Shown here: positions 2,109 to 60,134 of the stretch, in pieces
Position numbering within the stretch: position 1 is the first letter of the stretch
Layout of the letters: each line of letters starts with the position of its first letter
Origin: Defluviicoccus sp.
Lineage (GTDB): Bacteria > Pseudomonadota > Alphaproteobacteria > MPNO01
Reading direction: 5' to 3'
Length of the DNA stretch: 64,000 nucleotides
Assembly: GCA_028820505.1 (NCBI GenBank)
Contig: JAPPIT010000225.1
Span: forward strand, 356 to 64,355
Translations under genes and position numbers: made by a program
Notes under the pieces: model-generated
The model's database searches: none
Told to the model about the DNA's origin: nothing
Seen by the model: the letters and a program-made list of their open reading frames with translations, nothing else

Positions 2109-3010
2109 CCGCCACGCCACCCGCCGTCGGGCCGACCCTCTCGGTCCGCGACCTCCATCTGGCGATCGCGGGACGGCGCCGGGATACGCCGATCCTGCGC
2201 GGCGTATCGCTCGATATCGCGCCGGGCGAGGTGCACGGGCTGGTCGGCGAGTCGGGCGCCGGCAAGACCATGATCGGGAAGGCCGTCCTGGGCATTCAGC
2301 CGTCGCGCGCGCGGATCGCCGCCGGCTCGGTGCTGTTCGACGGCCGGGATATTACCCACCTGCCGGAACGCGAGCGCCGCCGGCTGATGGGCCGGGGCAT
2401 GGGGCTGATCCCGCAGGACCCGATGACCTCGCTGAACCCGGCCCACCGGATCGGCGCGCAGATCGCCGACGTGCTGCGCCTGCATCTCGGGCTGGACCGC
2501 GCCGCCGCCGGGGCCCGGACGCTGGAACTGCTGAACGAGGTCCATATCCGCGCGCCGGAACGGGTGGTCCGCCAGTATCCGCACGAGCTCAGCGGCGGCA
2601 TGCGCCAGCGCGTGTCGATCGCCATCGCCTTCGCCTGCCGGCCAAAGCTGATCGTCGCCGACGAGCCGACGACTGCGCTCGACGTGACGGTCCAGCGCCA
2701 GGTGCTCGCGCTGATCAAGCGGATGCAGGCGCAGGAAGACGCCTCGATCCTCTTCGTTACCCACGATCTCGGCGTGGTCGCCAAGATCTGCGACCGGGTG
2801 ACGGTGCTGCATGGCGGGCGGGTGCTGGAGACCGGCGCCACGCGCCGCATCGTCGAAGCGCCGGGCCACGACTACACCCGCGCGCTGATCGCCGCGACGC
2901 CGCGCCACGATCGGCCGGGCGGCCTGCTGCGGCCGGTGCCCGAGGCGCTGACCGCGCGGCTGGATGCGGAGGCGCTGGCCTACGACGCGGCGCGGGGAAG
3001 CCATGGCTGA
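2105..3010 (+). CDS. ABC transporter ATP-binding protein, DppD/OppD-like
   Basis: Internal ATG of ORF 1826..3010; Walker A GESGAGKT, signature LSGGMRQR; the N-terminal extension in the track is spurious. Confidence 0.85.
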   Translation: MTATPPAVGPTLSVRDLHLAIAGRRRDTPILRGVSLDIAPGEVHGLVGESGAGKTMIGKAVLGIQPSRARIAAGSVLFDGRDITHLPERERRRLMGRGMGLIPQDPMTSLNPAHRIGAQIADVLRLHLGLDRAAAGARTLELLNEVHIRAPERVVRQYPHELSGGMRQRVSIAIAFACRPKLIVADEPTTALDVTVQRQVLALIKRMQAQEDASILFVTHDLGVVAKICDRVTVLHGGRVLETGATRRIVEAPGHDYTRALIAATPRHDRPGGLLRPVPEALTARLDAEALAYDAARGSHG

Positions 3011-4583
3011 GCCCGCTCTCCTGGAAGCGGCCGGGCTGCGTCTCTCCCTGCCGGATTACAGCCGCAAGCCGCCCTTCGGCCCGGCCCCGCCGGTCGACAT
3101 CCTGCACGGCATCGACCTCGCTCTGGCGCCGGGCGATACGCTCGGCGTCGTCGGCGAGAGCGGCTCGGGCAAGACCAGCCTGGGGCGCACCCTGGTCCGG
3201 CTCTACAAGCCGACCGCGGGACGCCTGACGTTCGACGGGCGCGACATCGCGGACCTGCCGGAAAACCGGCTGCGCCCGCTGCGCCCGCAGTTCCAGATGA
3301 TCTTCCAGGACCCGCAATCCTCGCTCAACCCGCGCCGGAGGGTGGCCGACATCGTCGCCCAGCCGCTGCGCCTCTACGGCCGGGCCGCGACCGGGAGCGA
3401 GGCGCGGCGCCAGGTCGACGCGCTGCTCGAACGCGTCGCGCTGCGCCCGGCGCACGGCGATCGCTACCCCCACGAGCTGTCGGGCGGCGAGCGCCAGCGC
3501 GTCGGCATCGCGCGGGCCATCGCGCTGCAGCCCCGGCTGGTCGTCGCCGACGAGATCGTCTCCGGCCTCGACATGTCGAGCCAGGCCCAGATCCTGGCGC
3601 TGCTGCACGAATTGCGCCGAGACCTCGGCCTCGCCCTCGTGTTCATAAGCCACGACCTGTCGGTCGTCCGTACCGTGTGCGACCGGGTCGTGGTGATGCT
3701 GAACGGCCGGGCGGTGGAGCAGGGCGATTGCGCGGCGATCTTCGCATCGCCCCGCCACCCCTATACCCGCCGGCTCTTGAACGCGATTCCGCTGCCCGAC
3801 GTCGACCCCGGCTGGGTCGCCCGGACGGCGGAGAACGAACTGGGAGAGAAGTTGACCATGAACGTGAGGGACAGCGTGGCGCTGGTCACCGGCGCCAACC
3901 GCGGGGTCGGCGCCGCCTTCGTGCGCGCCCTGCTCGAGCGCGGCGCGACCAAGGTCTATGCCGGGATGAGGAGCACCGACGGCTACGAGACGCCGGACGG
4001 CCGGGTCAGGCCCCTCGCGCTCGACGTGACCGACCACGGCCGGATCGCGGAGGCGGCGGCCGAATGCGGCGACGTTACCCTGCTGGTCAACAATGCCGGG
4101 GCGAACCGCAACCGGCCGATCTCCGACGACGACGCCCAGCGGAACGCGCGCGACGAGATGGATGTGAACTATTTCGGCACGATGGAGATGTGCCGGCGCT
4201 TCGGCCCGGTGCTGGACGCGAACGGCGGCGGCGCCATCGTCAACATGCTGTCGATCCTGAGCCGGGTGAACCTGCCCATGATCGGCACCTACTGCGCCTC
4301 CAAGGCTGCGTCCCTGTCCCTCACGCAGGGAGTGCGCGCCCAGCTGGCGGCCCAGGGCACGCTGGTGGTCGCGGTCATGCCGGGCGCGATCAACACCCGC
4401 ATGGGCGACATGAACCCGCCGCCGCTCGAAGAGCCCGCCGACGTCGCCAGCGCCGCGCTGGACGCCGTCGAGGCCGGCGAGGAGGACATCTACCCCGGAA
4501 CCGTCGCCGCCGGCGTCAGCCAGGGCCTCGCCGCCGATGCGAAGGCGGTGGAGAAGCAGTTCGCGGCGTATCTGCCGGGGTAG
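3003..4583 (+). CDS. ABC ATP-binding protein (DppF/OppF-like) fused in frame to a short-chain dehydrogenase/reductase (SDR) domain
   Basis: Walker A GESGSGKT, signature LSGGERQR, C-terminal HPYTRRLL tail, no stop, then MNVRDSVALVTGANRGVGAAF (SDR TGxxxGxG) to 4583; SD-like GGGAGAG 7 nt before internal ATG 3858, so the SDR may also initiate independently. Confidence 0.6.
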   Translation: MAEPALLEAAGLRLSLPDYSRKPPFGPAPPVDILHGIDLALAPGDTLGVVGESGSGKTSLGRTLVRLYKPTAGRLTFDGRDIADLPENRLRPLRPQFQMIFQDPQSSLNPRRRVADIVAQPLRLYGRAATGSEARRQVDALLERVALRPAHGDRYPHELSGGERQRVGIARAIALQPRLVVADEIVSGLDMSSQAQILALLHELRRDLGLALVFISHDLSVVRTVCDRVVVMLNGRAVEQGDCAAIFASPRHPYTRRLLNAIPLPDVDPGWVARTAENELGEKLTMNVRDSVALVTGANRGVGAAFVRALLERGATKVYAGMRSTDGYETPDGRVRPLALDVTDHGRIAEAAAECGDVTLLVNNAGANRNRPISDDDAQRNARDEMDVNYFGTMEMCRRFGPVLDANGGGAIVNMLSILSRVNLPMIGTYCASKAASLSLTQGVRAQLAAQGTLVVAVMPGAINTRMGDMNPPPLEEPADVASAALDAVEAGEEDIYPGTVAAGVSQGLAADAKAVEKQFAAYLPG

Positions 4584-7048: not shown

Positions 7049-8041
7049 ATGCACAAGCCGAAGCACCTGGTGGCGGCCCTTGCCTGCGCGCTCGCGCTCG
7101 TTGCGCCGGCGCAAGCCGCGGAAAAGATCAACTTCATCCTCAACTGGGTCCCCGGTGCCGACCATGCGCCCTTCTTCCACGCCCGGGCCAAGGGCTGGTA
7201 CGCCGATGCCGGGCTGGAGGTCGACATCCTGTCGGGCAAGGGATCCGGGTTGTCGAGCCAACGGGTCGGGGCCGGCACCAGCCATCTCGGCATTTCCGAT
7301 CTCGCCACCGCGCTGGTCGCCAGGAGCAAGGGCGCCGATCTCGCCGCGGTGATGAACATCTATGCCAACTCGCCCTACGGCATGTACTGGCTCAAGAAGT
7401 CCGGCATCGCGGGGCCCAAGGATTTCGCGGGCAAGAAGATCGGCAACCCGCCCTGGGATGCGGCCCGTGTGATGTGGCCGGCATTCGCCAAGGCCGTGGG
7501 CCTGCCGGCGGATGCGGTCGAGTTCGTGAACATATCGCCGCAGGCCAAGGCGCCGTCGCTGCTCGCCGGTCAGATCGACATCACGACCAACTTCTACAAC
7601 GGCCACGACACGATGAAACGGCTGCTGGGCGACGACATGGGGTTCCTCGCCTGGTCCGAGGCGGGGCTCAACCATTACGGCAACTCGGTGATCGTCAACG
7701 GCGCCTTTCTCAAGGCCAAGCGGGACGCCGTGGCGGGCTTCGTGCGCGTGACCCAGAAGGCGTTTGCCGCCTGCGTTGCCGAGTCGAAGCCCTGCATCGA
7801 CTCGCTGATGGCGGCGAGTTCCGGCCTCAAGCGGACCGACCAGGAGCACCAGTGGGCGAGGGTCAAGGAGTTGATGACCGACAAGTTCACGCAGACCGTC
7901 GCCCTCGGCTACATGGACCCCGGCCGCATGCAGGCGGATTACGAGCTCGTCGCCAGGTACTTCAAGATGAAGGCGCCGTTCGACGTGAAGACCGCCTACA
8001 GCAACGAGTTCCTCGACCGGTCGATCAAGATGGCCGAATAG
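7049..8041 (+). CDS. ABC transporter substrate-binding protein, NMT1/THI5 (SsuA/TauA-like) family
   Basis: Signal peptide MHKPKHLVAALACALALVAPAQA; NMT1-like fold; divergent from the permease-amidase pair. Confidence 0.8.
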   Translation: MHKPKHLVAALACALALVAPAQAAEKINFILNWVPGADHAPFFHARAKGWYADAGLEVDILSGKGSGLSSQRVGAGTSHLGISDLATALVARSKGADLAAVMNIYANSPYGMYWLKKSGIAGPKDFAGKKIGNPPWDAARVMWPAFAKAVGLPADAVEFVNISPQAKAPSLLAGQIDITTNFYNGHDTMKRLLGDDMGFLAWSEAGLNHYGNSVIVNGAFLKAKRDAVAGFVRVTQKAFAACVAESKPCIDSLMAASSGLKRTDQEHQWARVKELMTDKFTQTVALGYMDPGRMQADYELVARYFKMKAPFDVKTAYSNEFLDRSIKMAE

Positions 8042-8063
8042 CCCGCCGCCCGACCGGACCGGC

Positions 8064-8828
8064 ATGGGCGAGCCGTTCATCCGCCTGGACAGCGTCCGCA
8101 AGGTCTACCGCACGCGGGGCGAGGAGTTTCTTGCGGTCTCGGACGTGAGCCTCGACATCGAGGCGGGCGAGCTGGTCTCGCTGGTCGGGCCGTCGGGCTG
8201 CGGCAAGACCACCGTGCTCAAGCTGCTCGCCGGGCTGCACGGCCACGACGGCGGCGAGGTGCGGATCGGCGGCGGGGAGCACGCCTTCGATGCCGGGCGC
8301 GATGTCGGCATGGTGTTCCAGCAGTCGTTGCTGCTGAAGTGGCGGCGCATCCTCGAGAACGTGCTGCTGCCGGCCGAAATCCTGGGCCTGCCGCCGAAGG
8401 CGAGCCGCGAGCGCGGACTGGAACTGCTGCACATGGTCGGGCTCGAAGGCTCGGAGCACAAATACCCTTACGAGCTGTCCGGCGGCATGCAGCAACGCGC
8501 GGCGATCGCCCGCGCCCTGATCCACGACCCCAAGCTGGTCCTGATGGACGAGCCGTTCGGCGCGCTCGACGCGCTGACCCGCGAGAAGATGAACCTGGAA
8601 CTGCTGCGGATATGGGCGGAGCACCGCAAGACCATCGTCTTCGTCACTCACAGCATTCAGGAGGCCGTGTTCCTGGGCTCCAAATGCGCGGTAATGACCG
8701 CGGGCCCGGCCCGCATGGCCGAAGTTTTTCCCATCGATCTCGCCCACCCCCGCGCGCTCGCCGTCAAGACCGGGGAGGCTTTCGGCGAATACACGCGGCG
8801 CATATACCGATTGCTCGACATGGAGTGA
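8064..8828 (+). CDS. ABC transporter ATP-binding protein, NitT/TauT family
   Basis: Walker A GPSGCGKTT, signature LSGGMQQRAAIARAL, Walker B LVLMDEPF. Confidence 0.85.
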   Translation: MGEPFIRLDSVRKVYRTRGEEFLAVSDVSLDIEAGELVSLVGPSGCGKTTVLKLLAGLHGHDGGEVRIGGGEHAFDAGRDVGMVFQQSLLLKWRRILENVLLPAEILGLPPKASRERGLELLHMVGLEGSEHKYPYELSGGMQQRAAIARALIHDPKLVLMDEPFGALDALTREKMNLELLRIWAEHRKTIVFVTHSIQEAVFLGSKCAVMTAGPARMAEVFPIDLAHPRALAVKTGEAFGEYTRRIYRLLDME

Positions 8829-8988
8829 CCCGCGTTGTGCGTGATTTCGTTGGAACGAACCGGGGTCCGGTCATCGGTATCTTCCCGGTGCGCCGGCGGT
8901 ATCGTGTATCGGACGACCGTACTATCCTTATTGCCGCCGAAGGCGGTATTCGGGGTTCCGCCGCCGATCGGAAACGGGAGGCAACGAG

Positions 8989-9987
8989 ATGACGAGAATT
9001 CGCAACATCGGACTGGCCGCCGCCATTCTGGCGCTCTCGGCGGGCGGCGCGTCGGCCGCCGACTTCACGATGAAGATCGGGCTTGGCACCTTCAAGGACG
9101 TCCAGCACGAATGGGCGAACTGGATGGAGAAAAAAATCGAGGCGGACTCCAAGGGCCGCATCGACGTCCAGGTGTTTCCGCGTAGCCAGCTCGGCAACAT
9201 TTTCCGCATGGTCGAAGGGGTGCAGATCGGCACCATCGAATGCCTGGTCGCGCCGATGGATTTCTATGCCGGCATCGACCCGCGCTTCGGCGTCTTCTCG
9301 ATTCCGGTGCTGTTCAAGAACAAGGCCAACGCCGCCAAGGCGCTGCTCGACCCCGAGCTTAACAAGGAGATCCGCACCGTCGGGACCGAGCGCGGCAACA
9401 TCCTCCCGGTGTCCGTCTTCACCCATTCGACGGCGCATTACTTCGGCAAGAAGCCGATCCGCCGGCTCGCCGACTTCAACGGGCTGAAACTGCGCGTCAA
9501 CGCGACCGACGCGGAGCGCGAGAAGATGAAACGCTTCGGCGCGACCGCGGTGCCGATGCCGCTCTCGGAAGTCGTGCCCTCGCTGCAACGCGGCGTGATC
9601 GACGGCACGATGAGCGGCATGGTCGTCTACGTGGTCTTCAAGTTCGATCAGATCGGCAAGGTGCTGACGCAGACCGACGACACGCTGATCCTGTCGGCCG
9701 GCATCGTCAGCAAGGCGTGGCTCGGCAAGCTCCCGGCAGATCTTCAGAAGGTGGTGATCGACGCCGGCGTTTCCCTGCAGCAGCGGGCCAATGAATATTC
9801 GGACACCAACGAGCAGGCCATGCTCGCCAGGTGGAAGCAGGGTGGCGGCTCGCTGGTGAAGCTGCCGGATGAGGATCTCGCCAAGGTGCGCACGCTGCTG
9901 GCCAGCGTCGGCGAGGACACGACCAAGGGAAAACCGGCGCTCAACGCATTCTACAAGCGGGTCAGGTCGGTCGCCGCCAAGTATTGA
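8989..9987 (+). CDS. dctP: TRAP transporter substrate-binding protein DctP family
   Basis: Signal peptide then DctP-family sequence; followed by DctQ and DctM genes. Confidence 0.85.
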   Translation: MTRIRNIGLAAAILALSAGGASAADFTMKIGLGTFKDVQHEWANWMEKKIEADSKGRIDVQVFPRSQLGNIFRMVEGVQIGTIECLVAPMDFYAGIDPRFGVFSIPVLFKNKANAAKALLDPELNKEIRTVGTERGNILPVSVFTHSTAHYFGKKPIRRLADFNGLKLRVNATDAEREKMKRFGATAVPMPLSEVVPSLQRGVIDGTMSGMVVYVVFKFDQIGKVLTQTDDTLILSAGIVSKAWLGKLPADLQKVVIDAGVSLQQRANEYSDTNEQAMLARWKQGGGSLVKLPDEDLAKVRTLLASVGEDTTKGKPALNAFYKRVRSVAAKY

Positions 9988-10041
9988 GGGCGGCCAGGCG
10001 CGCCCGGCGCCGCTGGGCGCCCGGCGCGTAGCGTAGCGGCG

Positions 10042-10578
10042 ATGTCGGACGACCGTCCCGGCGGGAAAGGCTGGCGCCGCGCCCTCGGCATCGCCTTCGA
10101 TTCGGTGCCCAGCGCGATCGCCGGCGCGCTGATCCTGGCCGGGGTCGCGATCATCTTCGCCAACGTCGTCAGCCGCTACCTGTTCTCGGCGGCGATCTTC
10201 TGGGCCGAGGAGATCCTCGTCTTCATGGTGGTCGGGCTGGTCGCGGTATCGGCCATCGCGGTCAGCTTCAACCGCGCCCATCTCAGCATGGACCTCCTGC
10301 TGGCCCGCGCCCGCGGCCGCCTCAAGCGCCTGATCGACGGCGCCATCGTGCTGGTTTTCGTCGCCTGCTGCGGCTTCGTGGTCGTGCAGTCGGTGGAGAT
10401 GGTCGCCGCATTCCACCGGACCGGCACGGTCAGCATCGCCGCGGGCGTACCGCTGGTGGTGCCGCACACCGTCCTGCTGATCGGTTTCGCGTTGATGATC
10501 GTTGCCGTGCTGGCCCGCATCCTTGCGGGGTTCCGCGCTCCGCCCGAGGACGAGGAGGACGAGACGTGGCGTGGGTAA
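10042..10578 (+). CDS. dctQ: TRAP transporter small permease DctQ
   Basis: 178 aa, four-TM small permease immediately upstream of and overlapping DctM. Confidence 0.8.
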   Translation: MSDDRPGGKGWRRALGIAFDSVPSAIAGALILAGVAIIFANVVSRYLFSAAIFWAEEILVFMVVGLVAVSAIAVSFNRAHLSMDLLLARARGRLKRLIDGAIVLVFVACCGFVVVQSVEMVAAFHRTGTVSIAAGVPLVVPHTVLLIGFALMIVAVLARILAGFRAPPEDEEDETWRG

Positions 10579-11837
10579 TGGTCGGATTGCCGGTGGCGCT
10601 GCTGCTGCTCGGCTTTCCGATATTCCTGATCCTCCTGACCACGTCCGCGATCGTGCTGATCTTCTTCGTCGACGTGCCGACGACGCTGATCCATCAGCAA
10701 ATGTTCGCTTCGATCGACAAGTTCGCGCTGCTCGCCGTGCCGTTCTTCATCTTCGCCGGCGACCTGATGACCCGCGGCGGCGTATCGGCCCGGCTGATCG
10801 ACTGGGTGAACTCGATCATCGGCGGCGTACGCGGCAGCCTGCCGCTGACCGCGCTCGGGACGGCGACGATCTTCGGCGCGATCTCCGGTTCGACCGGCGC
10901 TACGGTGGCCGCCGTCGGCACGCTCACCTACAAGCCGCTCCGCGACGCGGGCTACGACGCGCGGTTCGCCTCCGGCATGCTGACCTCGGCGGGGGCTATC
11001 GCCAACATCATCCCGCCCTCGATCGCCATGATCCTCTACGGCTTCGCGACCGAGACCTCGGTGGTCCAGCTGTTCGCCGCCGGGATCGTCCCGGGGCTCG
11101 TGCTTGCCGCCGCTTTCGGGATCTACATCTACTTTTACGTCGGGCGGACCGGCATCCCGGTCGCGGGCGCCGTCACCTGGCGCGGCTTCACCCGCGCCAC
11201 CGCCCGGTCGGGCTGGGCGCTCGGGGCACCGGTCATCATCCTGGGCGGCATCTATGCCGGGGTGTTCTCGCCCACCGAGGCCGCGGGCGTCGCCTGCGTC
11301 TACGCGATATTCGTGACCATGGCGGTCTACCGCGAGATCGCGCCGCGCGAACTGTTCCGGACCGCGGCCAATTCGGCGTTCCTCACCGGGCAGGTCTTCA
11401 TCATCGTCGCCGCCGCCGGCGTCTATTCATGGCTCTTGACGGTGACCGGAGTCGCCACCGTCGCGACCGACTACATCGCCGGGCTCGGCATGCCGCAATG
11501 GATGCTGCTGCTGGTGCTGAACCTGTTCATGCTGTTCGTGGGCACGGTGCTCGACACCGCCTCGGCGATCCTCGTTCTGACGCCGCTGCTCGCCGACATC
11601 GCGCTCGCCGTCGGGGTGCACCCGGTCCATTTCGGCATCGTCGCCGTCGTGAACCTCACCATCGGTACCTTCACGCCCCCCTTCGGCCTCAACATCTTCG
11701 TCGGCCAGGCGGTTTTCCGGGTTCCGCTCGCCACGCTTTATCCGGGTCTGCTCCCGTTCATCGCGCTCGCCATCGCGGCGCTCATGCTGATCACCTACGT
11801 GCCCGACCTCTCGCTCTGGATACTGGAATTCATCTGA
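10566..11837 (+). CDS. dctM: TRAP transporter large permease DctM
   Basis: 423 aa polytopic membrane protein with DctM hallmarks (FFIFAGDLM, GSTGATVAAVG). Confidence 0.85.
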   Translation: MAWVMVGLPVALLLLGFPIFLILLTTSAIVLIFFVDVPTTLIHQQMFASIDKFALLAVPFFIFAGDLMTRGGVSARLIDWVNSIIGGVRGSLPLTALGTATIFGAISGSTGATVAAVGTLTYKPLRDAGYDARFASGMLTSAGAIANIIPPSIAMILYGFATETSVVQLFAAGIVPGLVLAAAFGIYIYFYVGRTGIPVAGAVTWRGFTRATARSGWALGAPVIILGGIYAGVFSPTEAAGVACVYAIFVTMAVYREIAPRELFRTAANSAFLTGQVFIIVAAAGVYSWLLTVTGVATVATDYIAGLGMPQWMLLLVLNLFMLFVGTVLDTASAILVLTPLLADIALAVGVHPVHFGIVAVVNLTIGTFTPPFGLNIFVGQAVFRVPLATLYPGLLPFIALAIAALMLITYVPDLSLWILEFI

Positions 11838-20897: not shown

Positions 20898-22091
20898 CTA
20901 ATGTCCGCCGCGAATCAGCGCGCCCGTGGCGTAGCTGGTCGCCAGCGCCTCGTTGCCGCGCGGGCTGCGTACGAACCGGCGGGGCATGAGGGCGTTGAAA
21001 TCCTCGTAGCGCCCCGGGTCCAGGTCGGCCCCCGCGATGCCCGGGTGGCTCGCGTCGTAGCGGAAGCAGCGGAAGATCATGTTGTTGGTCCCGAAGACGG
21101 GGTGCTCGTAGTAGAACGGGCTCGCGAACTCCCACACGATATCGCCCTCGCGCGTCACCTCGAAGAGCCGCCCCCTGGTGGATTCGCAGATCAGCGTGTT
21201 GCCGTTGTCGAGCCGCTCGGCGCCCGAGCAGATGAAGCTGTTGAAGTCGTGCACCGGGTTTTCCTTGTATTCCCAGGCGATCTCGCCGGTGCGCGGATCG
21301 ACCTCCAGCACGCGGGAGAAGTCGATCGTCGTGTAGCGCCGGTGCGCCCCGTTGTCGAACACCAGCACGTTGCCGTTCGCGAGCCATGTCGGGTGGTGCT
21401 GGCCGGCGATGACACCCGGCCCCCAGCGCCAGTCGATGTTGCCCGTCTCCCGGTCGACGATGGCGATGGTGTCGATCACGCGGAAGCTCACGAGGATGCG
21501 GCCGTCCGGCAACTCCTCCAGCGAGTTGAGGTTGGTCCAGCGGTCGCGGGGGTGGAAGGGGCCGATGACGTCGCGCTCGGGGTCGAGATGCTCGAAGGTG
21601 AGCCACTCCCAGACGACGCGGCCGTCGCGGTCGATCTCCTGGACCGCCTCGCCGTACATTTCGCCGCGAAGCTCGGTGCCGGGCTGGCCGCCCCGGACGC
21701 GTGCGGCGGTCTCCCCCGGCACCTTCCGCCATTTGTTCACCAGCAGGTTGCCGTTGCGGAGCGGCGCGAAACAGTGGCTGAGATGCGGGTCGCGGTACTC
21801 CCAGACCGCGTTGCCGTCCCAATCCAGCTCGACGATCTGGCCGCCGTTGCCGGCGAACTCCGGGATCGCTGCCGGCAGGGTGCGCCCGGCGAACAGCAGG
21901 TTTCCGTTGGGCAGGAGCTCGCCGTAGTTCCCGGGCAGGTTTTCCGTTTGCCAGCGCTGGACGATGGCGCCCCACATGTCGATGAGCCACACGTTGCGGC
22001 CGTACATGGGCGCGAACAGGGTATAGCCCGGCCGTGCGCGCGCCGGTTCATGGTGCGTCACGCCGTGGACCATCCGAAGAGCGGCACTCAT
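20898..22091 (-). CDS. arylsulfotransferase (ASST)-family beta-propeller protein
   Basis: Repeated WEY/NGN blades, HHPTW motif typical of ASST family; no signal peptide; start uncertain (ATG at 22091 with GGGG SD, or TTG at 22157 13 nt after the upstream stop). Confidence 0.6.
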   Translation of the reverse strand: MSAALRMVHGVTHHEPARARPGYTLFAPMYGRNVWLIDMWGAIVQRWQTENLPGNYGELLPNGNLLFAGRTLPAAIPEFAGNGGQIVELDWDGNAVWEYRDPHLSHCFAPLRNGNLLVNKWRKVPGETAARVRGGQPGTELRGEMYGEAVQEIDRDGRVVWEWLTFEHLDPERDVIGPFHPRDRWTNLNSLEELPDGRILVSFRVIDTIAIVDRETGNIDWRWGPGVIAGQHHPTWLANGNVLVFDNGAHRRYTTIDFSRVLEVDPRTGEIAWEYKENPVHDFNSFICSGAERLDNGNTLICESTRGRLFEVTREGDIVWEFASPFYYEHPVFGTNNMIFRCFRYDASHPGIAGADLDPGRYEDFNALMPRRFVRSPRGNEALATSYATGALIRGGH

Positions 22092-22170
22092 GGCCCCGAT
22101 CCCGTTGCAGGTCAAAGGGTTAGAGGCGATTGAACGGTCCCGCGGACGCGGTGTCAACGCCCGGGCGGGC

Positions 22171-22734
22171 TCACCGGGCGCGGGCCGCGCGGCCCGGCGG
22201 CGCGAGGGGTACGCGGACCTGCGCCGGACGCCAGGCCGCCGCCGGACTGGCGGGGGCGGGCGAGTCGCCGGGCCGGGCGACGACGTCGAAGCGGGGCGCC
22301 GGCAGAGAATCGTCGACCGCCCACATCTCCAGTGCCACCCCGTAATAGCGGACGCCCCCGCCGCTATGGAGGTTCAGCCTGTCAATAGCCTCCCGGTGGA
22401 CGTCGCGGAACTCCCGCGCAAGCCAGACCGCGGCGGCGGCGTCGAATGCCGTCGCATACGCCATGAGCTGGCCGAGATGGGCGTGGTCGGACGGGCCGAG
22501 CTGGGCTTCGATCACCACGGGGAGCCCGGAGGCAACGTCGCGGCAGACGATGTCCGCCTGGCAGCCCGCGGCGCGCCGTTCCGGCACCGGGGCCACGAGA
22601 CGCAACCCTACCGCCTCGCCGAGTGCCTCCAGGTTGTCGGGCGAGGCGAGCCACGGCGCGAATTCCGGGCACTCGCGCGCCCAGACGTCCCGGAGCGCGA
22701 CGCGCGCGAGTCGTCCGGTGCGGCGTTCGGTCAT
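22171..22734 (-). CDS. hypothetical protein with NucS C-terminal-like PD-(D/E)xK nuclease fold (E-A-Q variant)
   Basis: W..E...F..WL.....L.E.LGL.L....E......G..DIVCRD...G.PVVIEAQLG..D..HLGQLMAY matches the NucS/DUF91 nuclease-domain pattern; GGAGAG SD; Ala/Pro-rich tail. Confidence 0.4.
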   Translation of the reverse strand: MTERRTGRLARVALRDVWARECPEFAPWLASPDNLEALGEAVGLRLVAPVPERRAAGCQADIVCRDVASGLPVVIEAQLGPSDHAHLGQLMAYATAFDAAAAVWLAREFRDVHREAIDRLNLHSGGGVRYYGVALEMWAVDDSLPAPRFDVVARPGDSPAPASPAAAWRPAQVRVPLAPPGRAARAR

Positions 22735-46140: not shown

Positions 46141-46596
46141 ATGGCGGCGCATGTGATGATCGTCGAGGCGCGGTTCTACGACGAGATCGCCGACGCGCTC
46201 TTCGACGGCGCGACCGCGGCGCTCGACGCGGCGGGCGCGACCTACGAGCGGTTTTCGGTCCCCGGGGCGTTCGAGATCCCCGCCTCGATCGGCTTCGCTG
46301 CGCGCGCGATGGAGGGGCCGGACCCGGCCGGCCGGTTCGACGGGTTCGTCGCGCTGGGCTGCGTCATTCGCGGGCAGACGACGCATTACGACTATGTCTG
46401 CACCGAGAGCGCGCGCGGGCTCCAGGACCTCGCCCTGCACCGCGGGCTCGCCATCGGCTACGGCATCCTCACCTGCGAGAACGGCGAGCAGGCGATGCAC
46501 CGCGCGAGACGCGACGAGGCCGATCGCGGCGGCGCCGCGGCGCGGGCCTGCCTCGCCATGATCGAGCTCAAGGCGCGTCTCGGGCTGGCAGGCTGA
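46141..46596 (+). CDS. ribH: 6,7-dimethyl-8-ribityllumazine synthase
   Basis: 151 aa lumazine-synthase fold; position between ribBA and nusB. Confidence 0.85.
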   Translation: MAAHVMIVEARFYDEIADALFDGATAALDAAGATYERFSVPGAFEIPASIGFAARAMEGPDPAGRFDGFVALGCVIRGQTTHYDYVCTESARGLQDLALHRGLAIGYGILTCENGEQAMHRARRDEADRGGAAARACLAMIELKARLGLAG

Positions 46597-47132
46597 TGCC
46601 CGCCCCCCGCGCCGGCTCCGACAGGCCGCGGCAGGCCGACGCGGCGCGGTTGAGCGCGGCGCGCCTCGCCGCCGTCCAGGCGCTTTACCAGATGGAGCTG
46701 ACCGGCGCCGCCGTCGAGGACGTGCTGGCGCAGTTCCTTCGCTACCACCGGGACGGCGTTCTCGACCGGGACGAGACCCCGGTCCGGCCCAAGAGCGCGC
46801 TGTTCGCCGAAATCCTTCGCGGAACCACCGTCAGGCGGCGGGAAATCGAGGACATCCTGCGCGCCGCCCTCAACCCGTCATGGCCGCTCGAGCGGATCGA
46901 GGTCCTGCTCGCCTGCATCCTGCGCGCCGGCGTGTTCGAGCTGCTCGGCCGCCCGGCGACGCCCGCCCGCGTGGCGGTCTCCGAATATGTCGACCTCGCC
47001 GACGCGTTCTTCGCCGCCGCCGAGAAGGGAATGACCAACGCCGTGCTCGACAGGGTCGCGCGGCGGCTGCGAAGCGGCGAGTTCGCGGAGTCCGGAGGTC
47101 CCGCCGATGCCCGGGCGGCCACGGCCGGGTGA
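46596..47132 (+). CDS. nusB: transcription antitermination factor NusB
   Basis: ARLAAVQALYQMEL...; ATGA overlap with ribH. Confidence 0.85.
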   Translation: MPAPRAGSDRPRQADAARLSAARLAAVQALYQMELTGAAVEDVLAQFLRYHRDGVLDRDETPVRPKSALFAEILRGTTVRRREIEDILRAALNPSWPLERIEVLLACILRAGVFELLGRPATPARVAVSEYVDLADAFFAAAEKGMTNAVLDRVARRLRSGEFAESGGPADARAATAG

Positions 47133-48090
47133 GTTCGAGCTCATCCGGGAGCTCTTCGCGCCGCTCGCGGCGGACGAGCCCGGAGCGCTCGGCCTTCTCG
47201 ACGACGCGGCGCTGATCGCGCCCCGGCCGGGCTTCGAACTCGTCACCGCCATCGACACGATCGTCGAGGGGGTCCATTTCCTGCCCGCGGATCCGCCTTT
47301 CGACGTCGCGCGCAAGCTCATGCGCGTGAACCTGTCCGATCTCGCCGCGATGGGAGCGAGGCCGCGCGCCTACCTGCTCGGCCTCGTCGTGCCCGACGCG
47401 CTGGATTTCGACTGGCTGCGGGATTTCGCGCGCGGGCTTGCGTCCGATCAGGTCCGGTTCGGCATGACCCTGGCGGGAGGCGATACCACCGCGACGACCG
47501 GTCCTCCCTGTCTCTCTCTCACAGCGATCGGCGAGGTCGAACCCGGCCGGGCGCTCCTGCGGTCGAACGCGGCGCCGGGTGAGCACATCTACGTATCAGG
47601 CGCCATCGGCGACGCCGCGCTCGGCCTGCGCGTGCTGCGGGGCGAGGATACCGGGCTTCCGGAAGACGCATGTGAGGCTGCTGCCGTCCGTTACCGTTTG
47701 CCGGAGCCGCGCCTGTCCCTCGGCATGGCGGTCCCCGCCTCGGCGGCGGTGGACGTGTCCGACGGGCTGGTCGCCGATCTCGGCCATATCTGCGTGGCTT
47801 CGGGCCTGGGCGCCCGGATCGAAGCGGCGCGGGTTCCCCTGTCCGGCCCCGCCCGGGCGGCGCTCGAGCTGGGCACGGTCGGTATCGCCGATGTGCTGAC
47901 GGGCGGCGACGATTACGAGCTGGTCTTCACCGCGCCGGCGGATCGCGGCAACGCCGTCCGCGAAGCCGCGGCGCGGGTCCGCGTACCCGTCACCCGAATC
48001 GGCGCCATGACCGAAGGGGAGGGGGTGTCGGTGGTCGACGAAGCGGGCGCGGCGATGGAGATCGGCAGAGCGGGCTACGCGCATTTCTAG
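47107..48090 (+). CDS. thiL: thiamine-monophosphate kinase
   Basis: GEFELIRELF, AIRS-like fold, GDDAALI motif. Confidence 0.8.
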   Translation: MPGRPRPGEFELIRELFAPLAADEPGALGLLDDAALIAPRPGFELVTAIDTIVEGVHFLPADPPFDVARKLMRVNLSDLAAMGARPRAYLLGLVVPDALDFDWLRDFARGLASDQVRFGMTLAGGDTTATTGPPCLSLTAIGEVEPGRALLRSNAAPGEHIYVSGAIGDAALGLRVLRGEDTGLPEDACEAAAVRYRLPEPRLSLGMAVPASAAVDVSDGLVADLGHICVASGLGARIEAARVPLSGPARAALELGTVGIADVLTGGDDYELVFTAPADRGNAVREAAARVRVPVTRIGAMTEGEGVSVVDEAGAAMEIGRAGYAHF

Positions 48091-56915: not shown

Positions 56916-56992
<77 letters not shown>

Positions 56993-57114: not shown

Positions 57115-58530
57115 ATGAATTCCGGCGGCCGATCCGTCTCTACCGTTTCGCTCCGGCCGCGACGCCGGACGGTGCGCGCGGCGGTGCTGTCGGCGGCCGT
57201 CCTCGCGTTCGGCGCGTGCGTGCCCGAGACCGGAACGCCGCCGCCGAGGGTGGAGGCCTCCCCGCCGCCGCCCGCCCCGAAGGCCGACCGCGCGCCGGAG
57301 AGGCCGGCGCCGGCGCCCGCGCCCGCGGCCGGCGAAACCCCGGATCCCGCGAAGAAGGACGCGGCGCCGGTCGTCGTCGGACTCCTGCTGCCGCTTTCGG
57401 GGGACGAGCGGGAGCTGGGCCGGGCGATGCTGAACGGCGCCATGATGGCGGTGTTCGACCACGCCGCCCCCGGGCTCGCGCTCAGGCCCTACGACACCGC
57501 GGGAACGCCGGCGGGCGCGGCGGAAGCGGCGGAGGCGGCGCTGAAGGACGGCGCGAGGCTGCTGCTCGGCCCGCTGTTCTCGGACTCCGTGGCGGCGGTC
57601 GCGCCCGTCGCCGCGCGCGTCGGCGTCAACGTGCTCGCGTTCACCAACGACCGGGCCGCGGCGGGACGGGGGGTCTTCATCCTCGGCCATCATCTGGAAC
57701 CGCAGATCCGGGCGGTCATCGCCTATGCCGGAAGGCGCGGGATCCGCAGCCTGGCGGTCCTGATCCCGACCGGCAGGTTCGGCGCCCAGGCCGCCGTCGC
57801 CGCCGACGCCGCGGCGCGCGAGGCCGGCATCGGCGTGCACGAGATCGCGGTCTACACCGACGACGTGCCGTCGATCGACCGCGCGATTCGCCGGCTCGCC
57901 CGCTACGACGGACGCAAGGCCGCGCTGCGCGAGCACCGCGCCGCCCTGAAACGGCGCGGGGATGCCGAGTCGATCGCCATTCTGGAGCGGCTGAAGAATC
58001 GCGACACACTGGGAAATGTCGACTTCGACGCGATTCTCGTGCCGTCCGGCAGCGGCACTGTCTACGCCATCGCGGCGCGTTTGCCGTATTACGACATTCC
58101 GAGCGACCGGGTGCGCGTACTCGGCATTTCGACCTGGGACCGGCTCGAGCTGAGATACGAGCCGGCGCTCAGGGGCGCATGGTACGCGAGCCCCGCGACC
58201 GAGCCCGGGAGCGTGTTCAAGCGGCGCTTCGCCGAATCCTTCGGCAAGCCGCCCGGCCCGCTGGCAGCGCTGGCGTACGACGCGGCGGCCGTCGCGGCGC
58301 TCCTCGGACGGCGCCCCGGCGCGGATTTCGGCGCCCGGGCGCTGCGCGACGCGCGCGGCTTCGAGGGCGCCTCCGGGCTGTTTCGCTTCGGCGAGGACGG
58401 GCTGTCGGAGCGCAGCTACGCCATCGTCGAGGTGGGAGAGGACGGGGCGAAGCCGGTGAGCCCGGCGCGCCGGAGCTTCGATGCGCCGCGCGCCGAGGCG
58501 CGCCTCGGGACGCCCACGCGCACGAACTGA
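57115..58530 (+). CDS. LppC/LpoA-like lipoprotein with periplasmic ligand-binding (Leu/Ile/Val-binding-protein-like) domain
   Basis: Signal peptide ending in a lipobox-like AFGAC, Pro/Ala-rich linker, type-I periplasmic-binding fold; ORF-track N-terminus overlaps the tRNA-Pro and is spurious. Confidence 0.65.
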   Translation: MNSGGRSVSTVSLRPRRRTVRAAVLSAAVLAFGACVPETGTPPPRVEASPPPPAPKADRAPERPAPAPAPAAGETPDPAKKDAAPVVVGLLLPLSGDERELGRAMLNGAMMAVFDHAAPGLALRPYDTAGTPAGAAEAAEAALKDGARLLLGPLFSDSVAAVAPVAARVGVNVLAFTNDRAAAGRGVFILGHHLEPQIRAVIAYAGRRGIRSLAVLIPTGRFGAQAAVAADAAAREAGIGVHEIAVYTDDVPSIDRAIRRLARYDGRKAALREHRAALKRRGDAESIAILERLKNRDTLGNVDFDAILVPSGSGTVYAIAARLPYYDIPSDRVRVLGISTWDRLELRYEPALRGAWYASPATEPGSVFKRRFAESFGKPPGPLAALAYDAAAVAALLGRRPGADFGARALRDARGFEGASGLFRFGEDGLSERSYAIVEVGEDGAKPVSPARRSFDAPRAEARLGTPTRTN

Positions 58531-58545
58531 AACGCTTCCCGTCGG

Positions 58546-58761
58546 TCAGCCGAGCAGCGCGTCGACCTCCTCGTCGGTCGGGAAACGCCCGGTCCCGAGC
58601 TTCGAATAGACGATGCGCCCGTCGATGATTATCTCGAAGGCGCCGGTCGCGCCGGGCGCGATCTCGACATCCTGGGCGCCGAGCGCCGTGAGCCTGTCCC
58701 TCGCACGGAGGGCGCGCGGCTCGTAGTTTCATCTCACGCAGTATTCGATCCGTATCGCCAT
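58546..58761 (-). CDS. SelW/Rdx-family selenoprotein with in-frame UGA selenocysteine (CxxU); absent from the ORF track
   Basis: Minus strand: MAIRIEYCVR-U(TGA, plus 58729..58731)-NYEPRALRARDRLTALGAQDVEIAPGATGAFEIIIDGRIVYSKLGTGRFPTDEEVDALLG*; IEYC..U and FEI.IDG.IVYSK...G.FP match SelW (human VVYCGAUGY...FEVMVAGKLIHSKK); hairpin GAGCC GCGCG CCCUC CGUGC GAGGG ACA GGCUC starts 6 nt after the UGA. Confidence 0.6.
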
Positions 58762-58934
58762 GCTCGCCCCTCCGGCCCTCGCGCGGCCGGACAACCCTGT
58801 CTATAGTCCGCCGCTCGTCGGATCATAGGCATTCAGGGCCGCCCCGCAACGCGGCGGCGGCTGCCTTGTGTATGATCCGGACTATCGAAAGCGTTTCGTC
58901 GGAACGGCGCGATGGCTGAGCGCGCGATGCGCGG

Positions 58935-60134
58935 ATGAGGGGCAGGTTTCGCCGCGGGGGCGCGCTGACGGCGCTCCTGATCACCGTCTTCATGGACATG
59001 GTGGGGTTCGGGATCATCATCCCGCTCACCCCGTTCTGGGCCGAGCGGTTCGGCGCCGGGCCGGCCACGGTGACGCTGCTGTTCGCGACCTATTCGGCGT
59101 TCGGCTTCGTGTTCTCCTTCCTCTGGGGCTGGGCGAGCGACAGGTGGGGGCGGAAGCCCGTCCTGCTCCTCAGCCTGATGGGCTCGGTGCTCTCCTTCCT
59201 CTGGCTCGGGTTCGCCGAGGCGCTCTGGATGCTGTTCGCCGCGCGCGCGATGGGCGGCATCTTCGGCGCCAACATCGCGGTCGGCCAGGCCTATATCGCC
59301 GACGTGACGCCGGAGGAGGACCGGGCGAAGGGGCTCGGCCTGTTCGGCGCCGCCTTCGGGCTCGGCTTCGTGCTGGGACCCGCGATCGGCGGCATCCTCG
59401 CCGGGCCGGACCCGGCGAATCCGGACTTCCGCACGCCCTTCCTCGCCGCCGCCGCGATGTCGTTCGTCGGCGTCCTCTTCGGGCTCCTGTTCCTGCGGGA
59501 GCCGGAACGGCGGGAAAAGACCGGGCCGCGCTACAGCATCCCGGCCCAGCTCGCAGGATTCGCCAGGGTTCTCGTCATGCCGGCGGTCGGCATCCCCGTC
59601 CTCTGCTTCGCCATGATGGGGTTCGCCATGGGCGGGCTCGAATCGACATTCGCCATATGGGCGGAGCGCGCGGTGGGCTGGGGGCCGCGCGAGACCGGCT
59701 TCTTCTTCGCCTATATCGGCGTGCTGCTCGTAATCGTCCAGGGCGGGCTGGTCGGGGTCGTGGTCAGGCTGCGCGGCGAGGCGCGGACGGCGGCCTACGC
59801 GCTCCTCGCGATGGCGGTCGGCATCGGCACGCTGCCCCTGTCCGACACGGTGACCGGGATCGCGCTGTCGGGCGCGGCGATAACGCTCGGCTACGGCCTC
59901 GGACAGCCCGCCTTCAACGCGCTGATCTCGCGCGCCTCGCCGGAAGATACCCAGGGCGCGATCCTCGGCGTGACCCAGTCGGTCCAGAGCCTGATGCGCA
60001 TCCTGGGCCCGATCACCGCCGGCGCGCTGTTCGCCGCCTGGGGGCGGGACATGCCCTATATCGCCGGCGCCGCCATCCTCGCCGCCGCCTTCGCCGTGTC
60101 GCTCACGATGCTGCGCGGCCGGCGGGTCGCGTGA
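58935..60134 (+). CDS. MFS transporter (DHA1/TetA-like)
   Basis: 12 TM; motif A-like GWASDRWGRKPVLL. Confidence 0.8.
   Translation: MRGRFRRGGALTALLITVFMDMVGFGIIIPLTPFWAERFGAGPATVTLLFATYSAFGFVFSFLWGWASDRWGRKPVLLLSLMGSVLSFLWLGFAEALWMLFAARAMGGIFGANIAVGQAYIADVTPEEDRAKGLGLFGAAFGLGFVLGPAIGGILAGPDPANPDFRTPFLAAAAMSFVGVLFGLLFLREPERREKTGPRYSIPAQLAGFARVLVMPAVGIPVLCFAMMGFAMGGLESTFAIWAERAVGWGPRETGFFFAYIGVLLVIVQGGLVGVVVRLRGEARTAAYALLAMAVGIGTLPLSDTVTGIALSGAAITLGYGLGQPAFNALISRASPEDTQGAILGVTQSVQSLMRILGPITAGALFAAWGRDMPYIAGAAILAAAFAVSLTMLRGRRVA

Follow-up and report, generated by a model that had tools for sequence, protein, structure and literature searches.

A SelW-like gene with an in-frame TGA and a SECIS-type hairpin, predicted to encode a selenoprotein, in a sponge-associated Defluviicoccus-like lineage

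Within the stretch of DNA analysed here (64,000 nucleotides from Defluviicoccus sp.; hereafter the window), the space between two plus-strand genes, an LppC-like gene (LppC/Peripla_BP_6) that ends at 58530 and an MFS gene at 58935-60134, holds a short coding sequence on the opposite strand. Both flanking genes are as claimed in an earlier note on this DNA, and the minus-strand reading that it proposed, a frame with one in-frame TGA, proved exact on translation: positions 58546-58761 read MAIRIEYCVR*NYEPRALRARDRLTALGAQDVEIAPGATGAFEIIIDGRIVYSKLGTGRFPTDEEVDALLG*, with the internal TGA at 58731-58729. The coding sequence, predicted to specify a SelW-like (Rdx family) selenoprotein, comprises 71 codons and a TGA stop, from the ATG at 58761-58759 to the terminal TGA at 58548-58546. 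After the internal TGA come 60 further codons, which begin NYEPRAL and end DALLG before the stop. Seven nucleotides 5' of the ATG, the Shine-Dalgarno sequence GGAGG (58769-58773, minus strand) can be read directly, and most orthologs have a GGAG-type motif 5' of the ATG. The gene is missed by the ORF track because of its in-frame TGA, as had also been said, with no entry for this frame in the mechanical ORF list, and it is indeed unannotated, the public annotation of these contigs being empty between the LppC-like and MFS genes.

Comparison of 15 upstream regions revealed a conserved block on the minus strand (58798-58850), which consists of TTGCGG (58849-58844), 16 nt, TATGAT (58827-58822) and then GGACTATAG (58809-58801). 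Both TATGATCCG and GGACT are invariant in 15 of 15 orthologous upstream regions, and the distance to the ATG varies. This block is likely to represent a promoter together with a second conserved element. A consensus promoter scan does not call it, the -35 hexamer matching at only three of six positions. The SelW-like and MFS genes diverge from either side of it.

Membership of the SelW/Rdx family, as proposed, was borne out by curated profiles. With the TGA replaced by Cys for the scans, the translation scored 61.9 bits on Pfam PF10262 (Rdx; cutoff 22.6), with residues 3-68 aligned to positions 2-70 of the 74-position profile, and 56.1 bits on NCBIfam TIGR02174 (SelT/SelW/SelH; cutoff 34.2), both above the curated cutoffs. 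On the Campylobacter-type equivalog NF041051 (SelTWH_Campy) it reached 77.2 bits, below the cutoff of 88, and it is thus related to that equivalog, not a member of it. The best sequence matches in the PDB were human MIEN1 (2ljk, E=2.5e-8), Agrobacterium Atu0228 (2fa8, E=2e-6) and mouse SelW (2npb, phmmer E=1.5e-5, residues 1-65), and several structural-genomics proteins described as SelW-related were matched as well.

These alignments also place the TGA at the second residue of the CxxC/CxxU motif, where the earlier note had put it. The TGA column corresponds to the second Cys of CxxC in MIEN1 (CEPC) and Atu0228 (CTQC) and to the mutated Sec position in mouse SelW. Codon 11 (58729-58731, minus strand) is accordingly the predicted Sec codon, the second redox residue of C8-V-R-U11. 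The first is Cys8, encoded by TGC at 58738-58740 (minus strand); it is invariant in family alignments of 12 (A3) and 64 (A2) sequences, and Cys stands at this position in most of the approximately 150 representative matches tallied. Homology to solved members suggests a thioredoxin-like fold of the order beta1-alpha1-beta2-beta3-beta4-alpha2. A single-sequence AlphaFold2 model of the ortholog P0001 was poor (pLDDT 63, N-terminus unmodelled), with a secondary-structure order, H-E-E-E-H, that fits a thioredoxin-like fold. When this model was searched with Foldseek, SelW (2npb) and other Rdx structures led the matches at values short of significance (E>=0.18).

Orthologs were gathered as 15 distinct sequences, comprising the window, 3 further metagenome contigs and 11 species representatives. 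The last are GTDB species-representative genomes, sponge-associated MAGs that bear the name Alphaproteobacteria bacterium or Defluviicoccus sp. and of which several are at chromosome level. Synteny is kept, in the order tRNA-Pro(GGG), LppC-like gene, SelW-like gene, MFS gene. An identical MFS neighbour protein occurs on JAPPLA010000090.1 (GCA_028819635.1) and in the ENA and Logan assemblies of SAMN13943215. The tRNA-Pro(GGG), at 56916-56992 on the plus strand of the window, was found by ARAGORN between the MerR-family and LppC-like genes there and in all 13 related loci scanned.

The gene architecture is the same in all 15 coding sequences, with TGA at codon 11 in the window and in 14 of 14 other distinct orthologs, from independent assemblies and with intact coding sequence on both sides. 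A TGA unique to this strain, with a Cys codon in its relatives, had been named as one observation that would speak against the gene; TGA stands in every ortholog found. On the 5' side, the two residues between Cys and TGA differ among orthologs, being VR or RV with several codons each, and synonymous changes occur in codons 3-5. This variation indicates that coding selection acts on the first 10 codons and, in one and the same frame, on the 60 codons downstream of the TGA, where the protein is kept and third positions vary. No in-frame ATG, GTG or TTG follows the TGA in 7 of the 15 orthologs (the window and 6 others), and the remaining 8 share no conserved start of this kind, which means that the conserved domain can be made only by readthrough from the ATG at 58761.

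Directly 3' of the TGA lies a hairpin inside the ORF (58690-58722, minus strand), which was considered a putative bacterial SECIS on the basis of its fold, frozen third positions and covariation across the family. The element described earlier, GAGCC-GCGCG-CCCUC-CGUGC-GAGGG-ACA-GGCUC beginning 6 nt after the TGA, is present and corresponds to the minimum-free-energy fold. Its lower stem pairs 58722-58718 with 58694-58690 and its upper stem pairs 58712-58708 with 58702-58698 (all minus strand), and the apical loop CGUGC (58707-58703) presents two conserved residues, G (58706) and U (58705). A 71-nt piece folded with a stability no greater than that of shuffled sequences (z +0.59). The 44-nt element alone reached -17.5 kcal/mol (z -2.38), a value equalled by 1 of 200 shuffles. 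With only the shorter element significant, stability by itself is weak evidence in DNA of 68% GC, and the case for the hairpin rests on conservation and covariation.

Conservation is concentrated in the element. The 42 nt from the TGA onward have a mean identity of 97% among the 15 orthologs, as against about 85% in the rest of the gene, and the few substitutions within the element fall in internal loops or at the outermost pair. None of 9 degenerate third positions in the stems and apical loop varies, compared with 34 of 47 in codons 25-71 (Fisher p=6.6e-5). The hairpin is otherwise invariant within the orthologous clade, and the covariation comes from more distant family members only. To gather these, metagenome contigs were scanned with the pattern ATH GAR TAY TGY NNN NNN TGA AAY TAY, which encodes I-E-Y-C-x-x-TGA-N-Y. 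At least 120 matches were obtained, and among those listed, 99 of 120 (95 distinct) run on as SelW-like ORFs.

An ungapped alignment of 109 SelW-like sequences, covering 48 nt from the TGA, was then examined for covariation. The upper stem (columns 20-24 with 30-34) is 94.9% paired across the 109 sequences, whereas slid controls reach 29-43%. Compensatory double changes are observed in all five upper-stem pairs, one of which is GC in 58 sequences, CG in 22, UA in 5 and AU in 4, and none of 500 shuffles attains the observed values. The lower stem is paired in 49% of cases family-wide; it is real in the window's clade, as a clade-specific extension. In the apical loop, columns 26 and 27 (counted from the U of UGA) are G and U, respectively, in at least 90% of the 109 sequences.

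The loop begins 21 nt after the UGA in the window and 21-22 nt after it in 83 of 110 family folds, and the bSECIS model allows 16-37 nt from UGA to apical loop (PMC10778597). The hairpin therefore has the published hallmarks of a bSECIS, namely a stem-loop directly 3' of the UGA, 21 nt to the loop and a G in a 5-nt loop (PMC10778597, PMC1088965). With its frozen synonymous sites, its covarying upper stem and a G-U loop at bSECIS distance, the description of the hairpin as SECIS-like appears sound at the level of sequence. Rfam searches of the whole window at gathering thresholds and of 58500-58900 at E<=10 returned three tRNAs only and nothing at the locus. To our knowledge, Rfam has no family for the bacterial SECIS.

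Positions 58546-58761 (minus strand) very probably constitute a real gene, absent from annotation, whose 71-residue product is a SelW-like (Rdx) protein with Sec as its second active-site residue. Translation would start at the ATG at 58761, behind the GGAGG motif. By analogy with the established bacterial pathway, a ribosome arriving at the UGA of codon 11 would meet the in-ORF hairpin, whose G-U loop would bind SelB-GTP-Sec-tRNA(Sec), and Sec would be inserted at the UGA instead of termination. The ordinary TGA at 58548-58546 would then end the protein. The product may act as a small thiol-dependent oxidoreductase, cycling between a selenolate/thiol form and a Cys8/Sec11 selenenylsulfide.

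The gene thus predicts Sec decoding of UGA in a sponge-associated Defluviicoccus-like lineage, and the Sec machinery was sought in the window and in related loci. The 64-kb window and some 270 kb of those loci yielded no selA, selB, selD or tRNA-Sec, ARAGORN detecting no tRNA-Sec in the window or the 13 related loci. A tblastn search of the window with approximate E. coli SelA, SelB and SelD queries gave a sole match, to ThiL (47107-48090), and a search with authentic environmental SelD and SelA matched nothing in the window or in loci L001-L018. When an alphaproteobacterial SelD fragment was compared with 5.8 billion proteins, none of the best 120 of 7979 matches lay on the relatives' chromosomes. 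Pfam annotation of ten large window ORFs returned nothing selenium-related.

The ThiL match was weighed as a selenophosphate synthetase and rejected: it is 26% identical to SelD, belongs to the same PurM-like superfamily and lies next to nusB, the nusB-thiL pair occupying 46596-48090 on the plus strand. It is the only window ORF similar to SelD. A scan of the window for other genes with an in-frame TGA, which relied on GC3 on both sides of the TGA, returned only the junction of the IHF and MerR genes. That filter misses the SelW-like gene too, and is consequently blind to a Sec codon near the N-terminus.

Among the alternatives to Sec insertion, the one that fares best is a selenium-free readthrough of the UGA, in which Cys or Trp would be supplied by a near-cognate or mischarged tRNA and the hairpin would serve as a readthrough or pausing element, for instance after loss of SelA or SelD. 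SelB/tRNA-Sec systems can deliver Cys under selenium limitation, and no Sec machinery was located in the window and related loci, both of which count in its favour. Against it, the hairpin keeps to the bSECIS register of the family and has the conserved G-U that SelB recognises in the loop (PMC10778597). Loss of the machinery with the UGA and SECIS strictly kept over 11 species would be unstable, conversion to TGC being the expected outcome. Published metagenomics also reports SelA and SelB for a sponge Defluviicoccus bin: bin129 has one SelA COG and one SelB COG (PMC5649159, Table S4), and the two proteins co-occur in most sponge-symbiont bins (Slaby et al. 2017, PMC5649159). Readthrough of this kind is therefore considered improbable, and Sec decoding in this lineage fits the published enrichment of SelA and SelB in sponge symbionts (PMC5649159).

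One in-frame TGA on a contig of a MAG might also reflect a pseudogene or a sequencing error, with the Cys codon (TGC or TGT) of a CxxC Rdx gene turned into, or misread as, TGA. Cys-form homologs do exist, CxxC being present in 25 of about 140-150 representative matches. Such an origin is scarcely credible when independent assemblies and 11 species, 15 distinct sequences in all, share the TGA, with coding sequence conserved on both sides and an extra constraint on the downstream hairpin. The nearest Cys-form homologs are, moreover, only about 47-49% identical.

A genetic code that generally assigns TGA to Trp or Gly (table 4 or 25) is suggested by database translations of homologs, which show W (P0001 and 66 other representatives) or G (6) at the position in question. 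The W of P0001 is a TGA in the DNA, however, and its final W is the gene's terminal TGA, which identifies the translation as an artefact. TGA terminates 30 of the 56 gene-like ORFs in the window, the SelW-like gene included, and is the commonest stop there, which indicates that the organism does not generally read TGA as sense. True non-Sec homologs have Cys at this column, not Trp, as seen in P0007, P0008 and P0011, and the genome is of a free-living alphaproteobacterial type with 68% GC. Recoding on a genome-wide scale can accordingly be given hardly any weight.

The extreme nucleotide conservation of the hairpin region might be read as a sign that a 10-residue peptide or nothing at all is made and that the downstream sequence acts as non-coding RNA or as a structure that regulates the MFS or LppC-like genes. 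However, substitutions downstream of the hairpin are mostly at third positions (34 of 47 vary) with the amino acids kept, and residues 3-68 of the translation match Pfam Rdx. This is the signature of a coding sequence rather than of an RNA, and it makes this reading exceedingly remote.

The preferred reading, a Sec-containing SelW-like protein, makes the gene a further member of a long-known and abundant bacterial selenoprotein family, and the SelW-like kind itself is not new. Bacterial SelW-like selenoproteins (CxxU; PF10262, formerly PF05169; TIGR02174) have been known for two decades and are recorded from the Sargasso Sea, the GOS data and sequenced genomes (PMC1088965, PMC2398784, PMC1794560). 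In the two marine data sets no prokaryotic selenoprotein family was more abundant, with 48 Sec versus 7 Cys forms in the Sargasso Sea and 427 versus 56 in GOS (PMC1088965, PMC2398784). That annotation misses them is well documented and common (PMC1088965, PMC2398784, PMC4607533).

The window's protein shares with these proteins a length of about 70-80 aa, the motif I-E-Y-C-x-x-U-N-Y, the FE[IV]..DG....SK...GRFP block, an in-ORF SECIS with a G-containing apical loop and the tendency to be routinely missed by annotation (PMC4607533). The differences are of degree, nothing being categorical. Its sequence is clade-specific, with an identity of no more than about 50% to the other cluster representatives, its SECIS has an extra lower stem, and its gene is not beside selD or selA, unlike those of a subset of the family.

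Mouse SelW (2npb) is a thioredoxin-like protein of the same Rdx family, with CxxU at the corresponding position. Its sequence is highly diverged, and the C-terminal GRFP motif of the window's protein is of bacterial type. The eukaryotic SECIS is a 3' UTR element recognised by SBP2/eEFSec, whereas the window's hairpin lies inside the ORF, with its loop 21 nt after the UGA. In the Cys-form Rdx proteins MIEN1/C17orf37 (2ljk), Atu0228 (2fa8) and SAV_2001 (3dex), CxxC aligns with C8 and U11; these proteins have Cys (TGY) in place of Sec and no need for a SECIS.

For the hairpin, a comparison is provided by the SECIS of E. coli fdhF, the model for bacteria. Both are in-ORF stem-loops directly 3' of the UGA in which the upper stem is short and G-U is exposed in the loop, in fdhF for SelB. 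The fdhF loop G-U, which we take to be G23/U24, differs in register from that of the window, where G and U occupy positions 26-27 (numbering starts at the U of UGA), a shift of roughly one codon away from it, and no bulged U is evident.

Public databases reflect the difficulty of calling such genes. Among representative matches shorter than 200 aa (about 140-150; P0001 and P0005-P0153), 67 have W at the Sec column, 6 have G, 25 have C, and 35 lack the N-terminus. The W-bearing calls compared with DNA were P0001 and P0039 only, and the family pattern suggests that most of its members probably carry TGA at this column. Gene callers either drop SelW-like genes or render the TGA as Trp or Gly, which has polluted databases with W or G at the Sec position in 73 of the about 140-150 entries. 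The 35 truncated calls begin after the TGA. Overall, mistranslated selenoproteins contaminate public databases systematically. For the window's genome an annotation gap is corrected, while knowledge of selenoproteins is left unchanged.

Elsewhere in the family, the gene has selenium-related neighbours. Among the matches listed, selD adjoins the SelW-like gene in 15 of 95 distinct metagenomic loci, and selA follows in 7, in each of these on the same strand. In 14 of the loci (L022, L023, L025, L026, L028, L032, L042, L055, L091, L097, L098, L112, L116 and L130) selD is on the same strand, 0.5-1 kb downstream, and in L046 it is divergent from the SelW-like gene. In L130, for example, the SelW-like TGA is at 733 and selD spans 1736-2734, and in L032 selA spans 7941-9491. 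The neighbouring selD scores 344.9 bits on TIGR00476 and the neighbouring selA 477 bits on TIGR00474. The selD gene itself contains an in-frame TGA (SSCAG-U-ASK) in both loci checked, L130 and L032.

This adjacency suggests that certain soil lineages have a selW-selD-selA operon; selD and selA neighbours are absent from the loci of the window's lineage. Bacterial SelW-like proteins might conceivably be tied to selenium activation, with the CxxU protein reducing selenium or delivering it to selenophosphate synthetase instead of acting just as a general antioxidant, a proposal that we regard as speculative and rather unlikely. Were it true, the window's protein would represent such a redox partner for selenium handling, present as a stand-alone copy.

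A variant of the motif was encountered in locus L139 (268-492, plus strand; also protein P0016), where a SelW-like ORF contains two TGA codons, MKIEIEY-TGA-G-M-TGA-NYQP, and would thus display UxxU in place of CxxU. A single hairpin with a GUU loop follows at the usual distance register. In the GOS study, UxxU is mentioned for a Prx-like family only (PMC2398784).

Further observations concern other parts of the window. Two ORFs of high GC3 that seemed to overlap at 9988-11837 proved to be ordinary dctQ/dctM genes of a TRAP transporter. One stop-free frame at 2952-4580 (plus strand) encodes two domains, an ABC-transporter ATPase that ends in an oligo_HPY tail (residues 51-287) and, after it, a short-chain dehydrogenase (residues 309-485), and represents either two adjacent genes in the same frame or a fusion. 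Finally, an ORF of the arylsulfotransferase (ASST) family is located at 20901-22373 on the minus strand, with TRAP (dctPQM, 8989-11837) and ABC transporter genes nearby.
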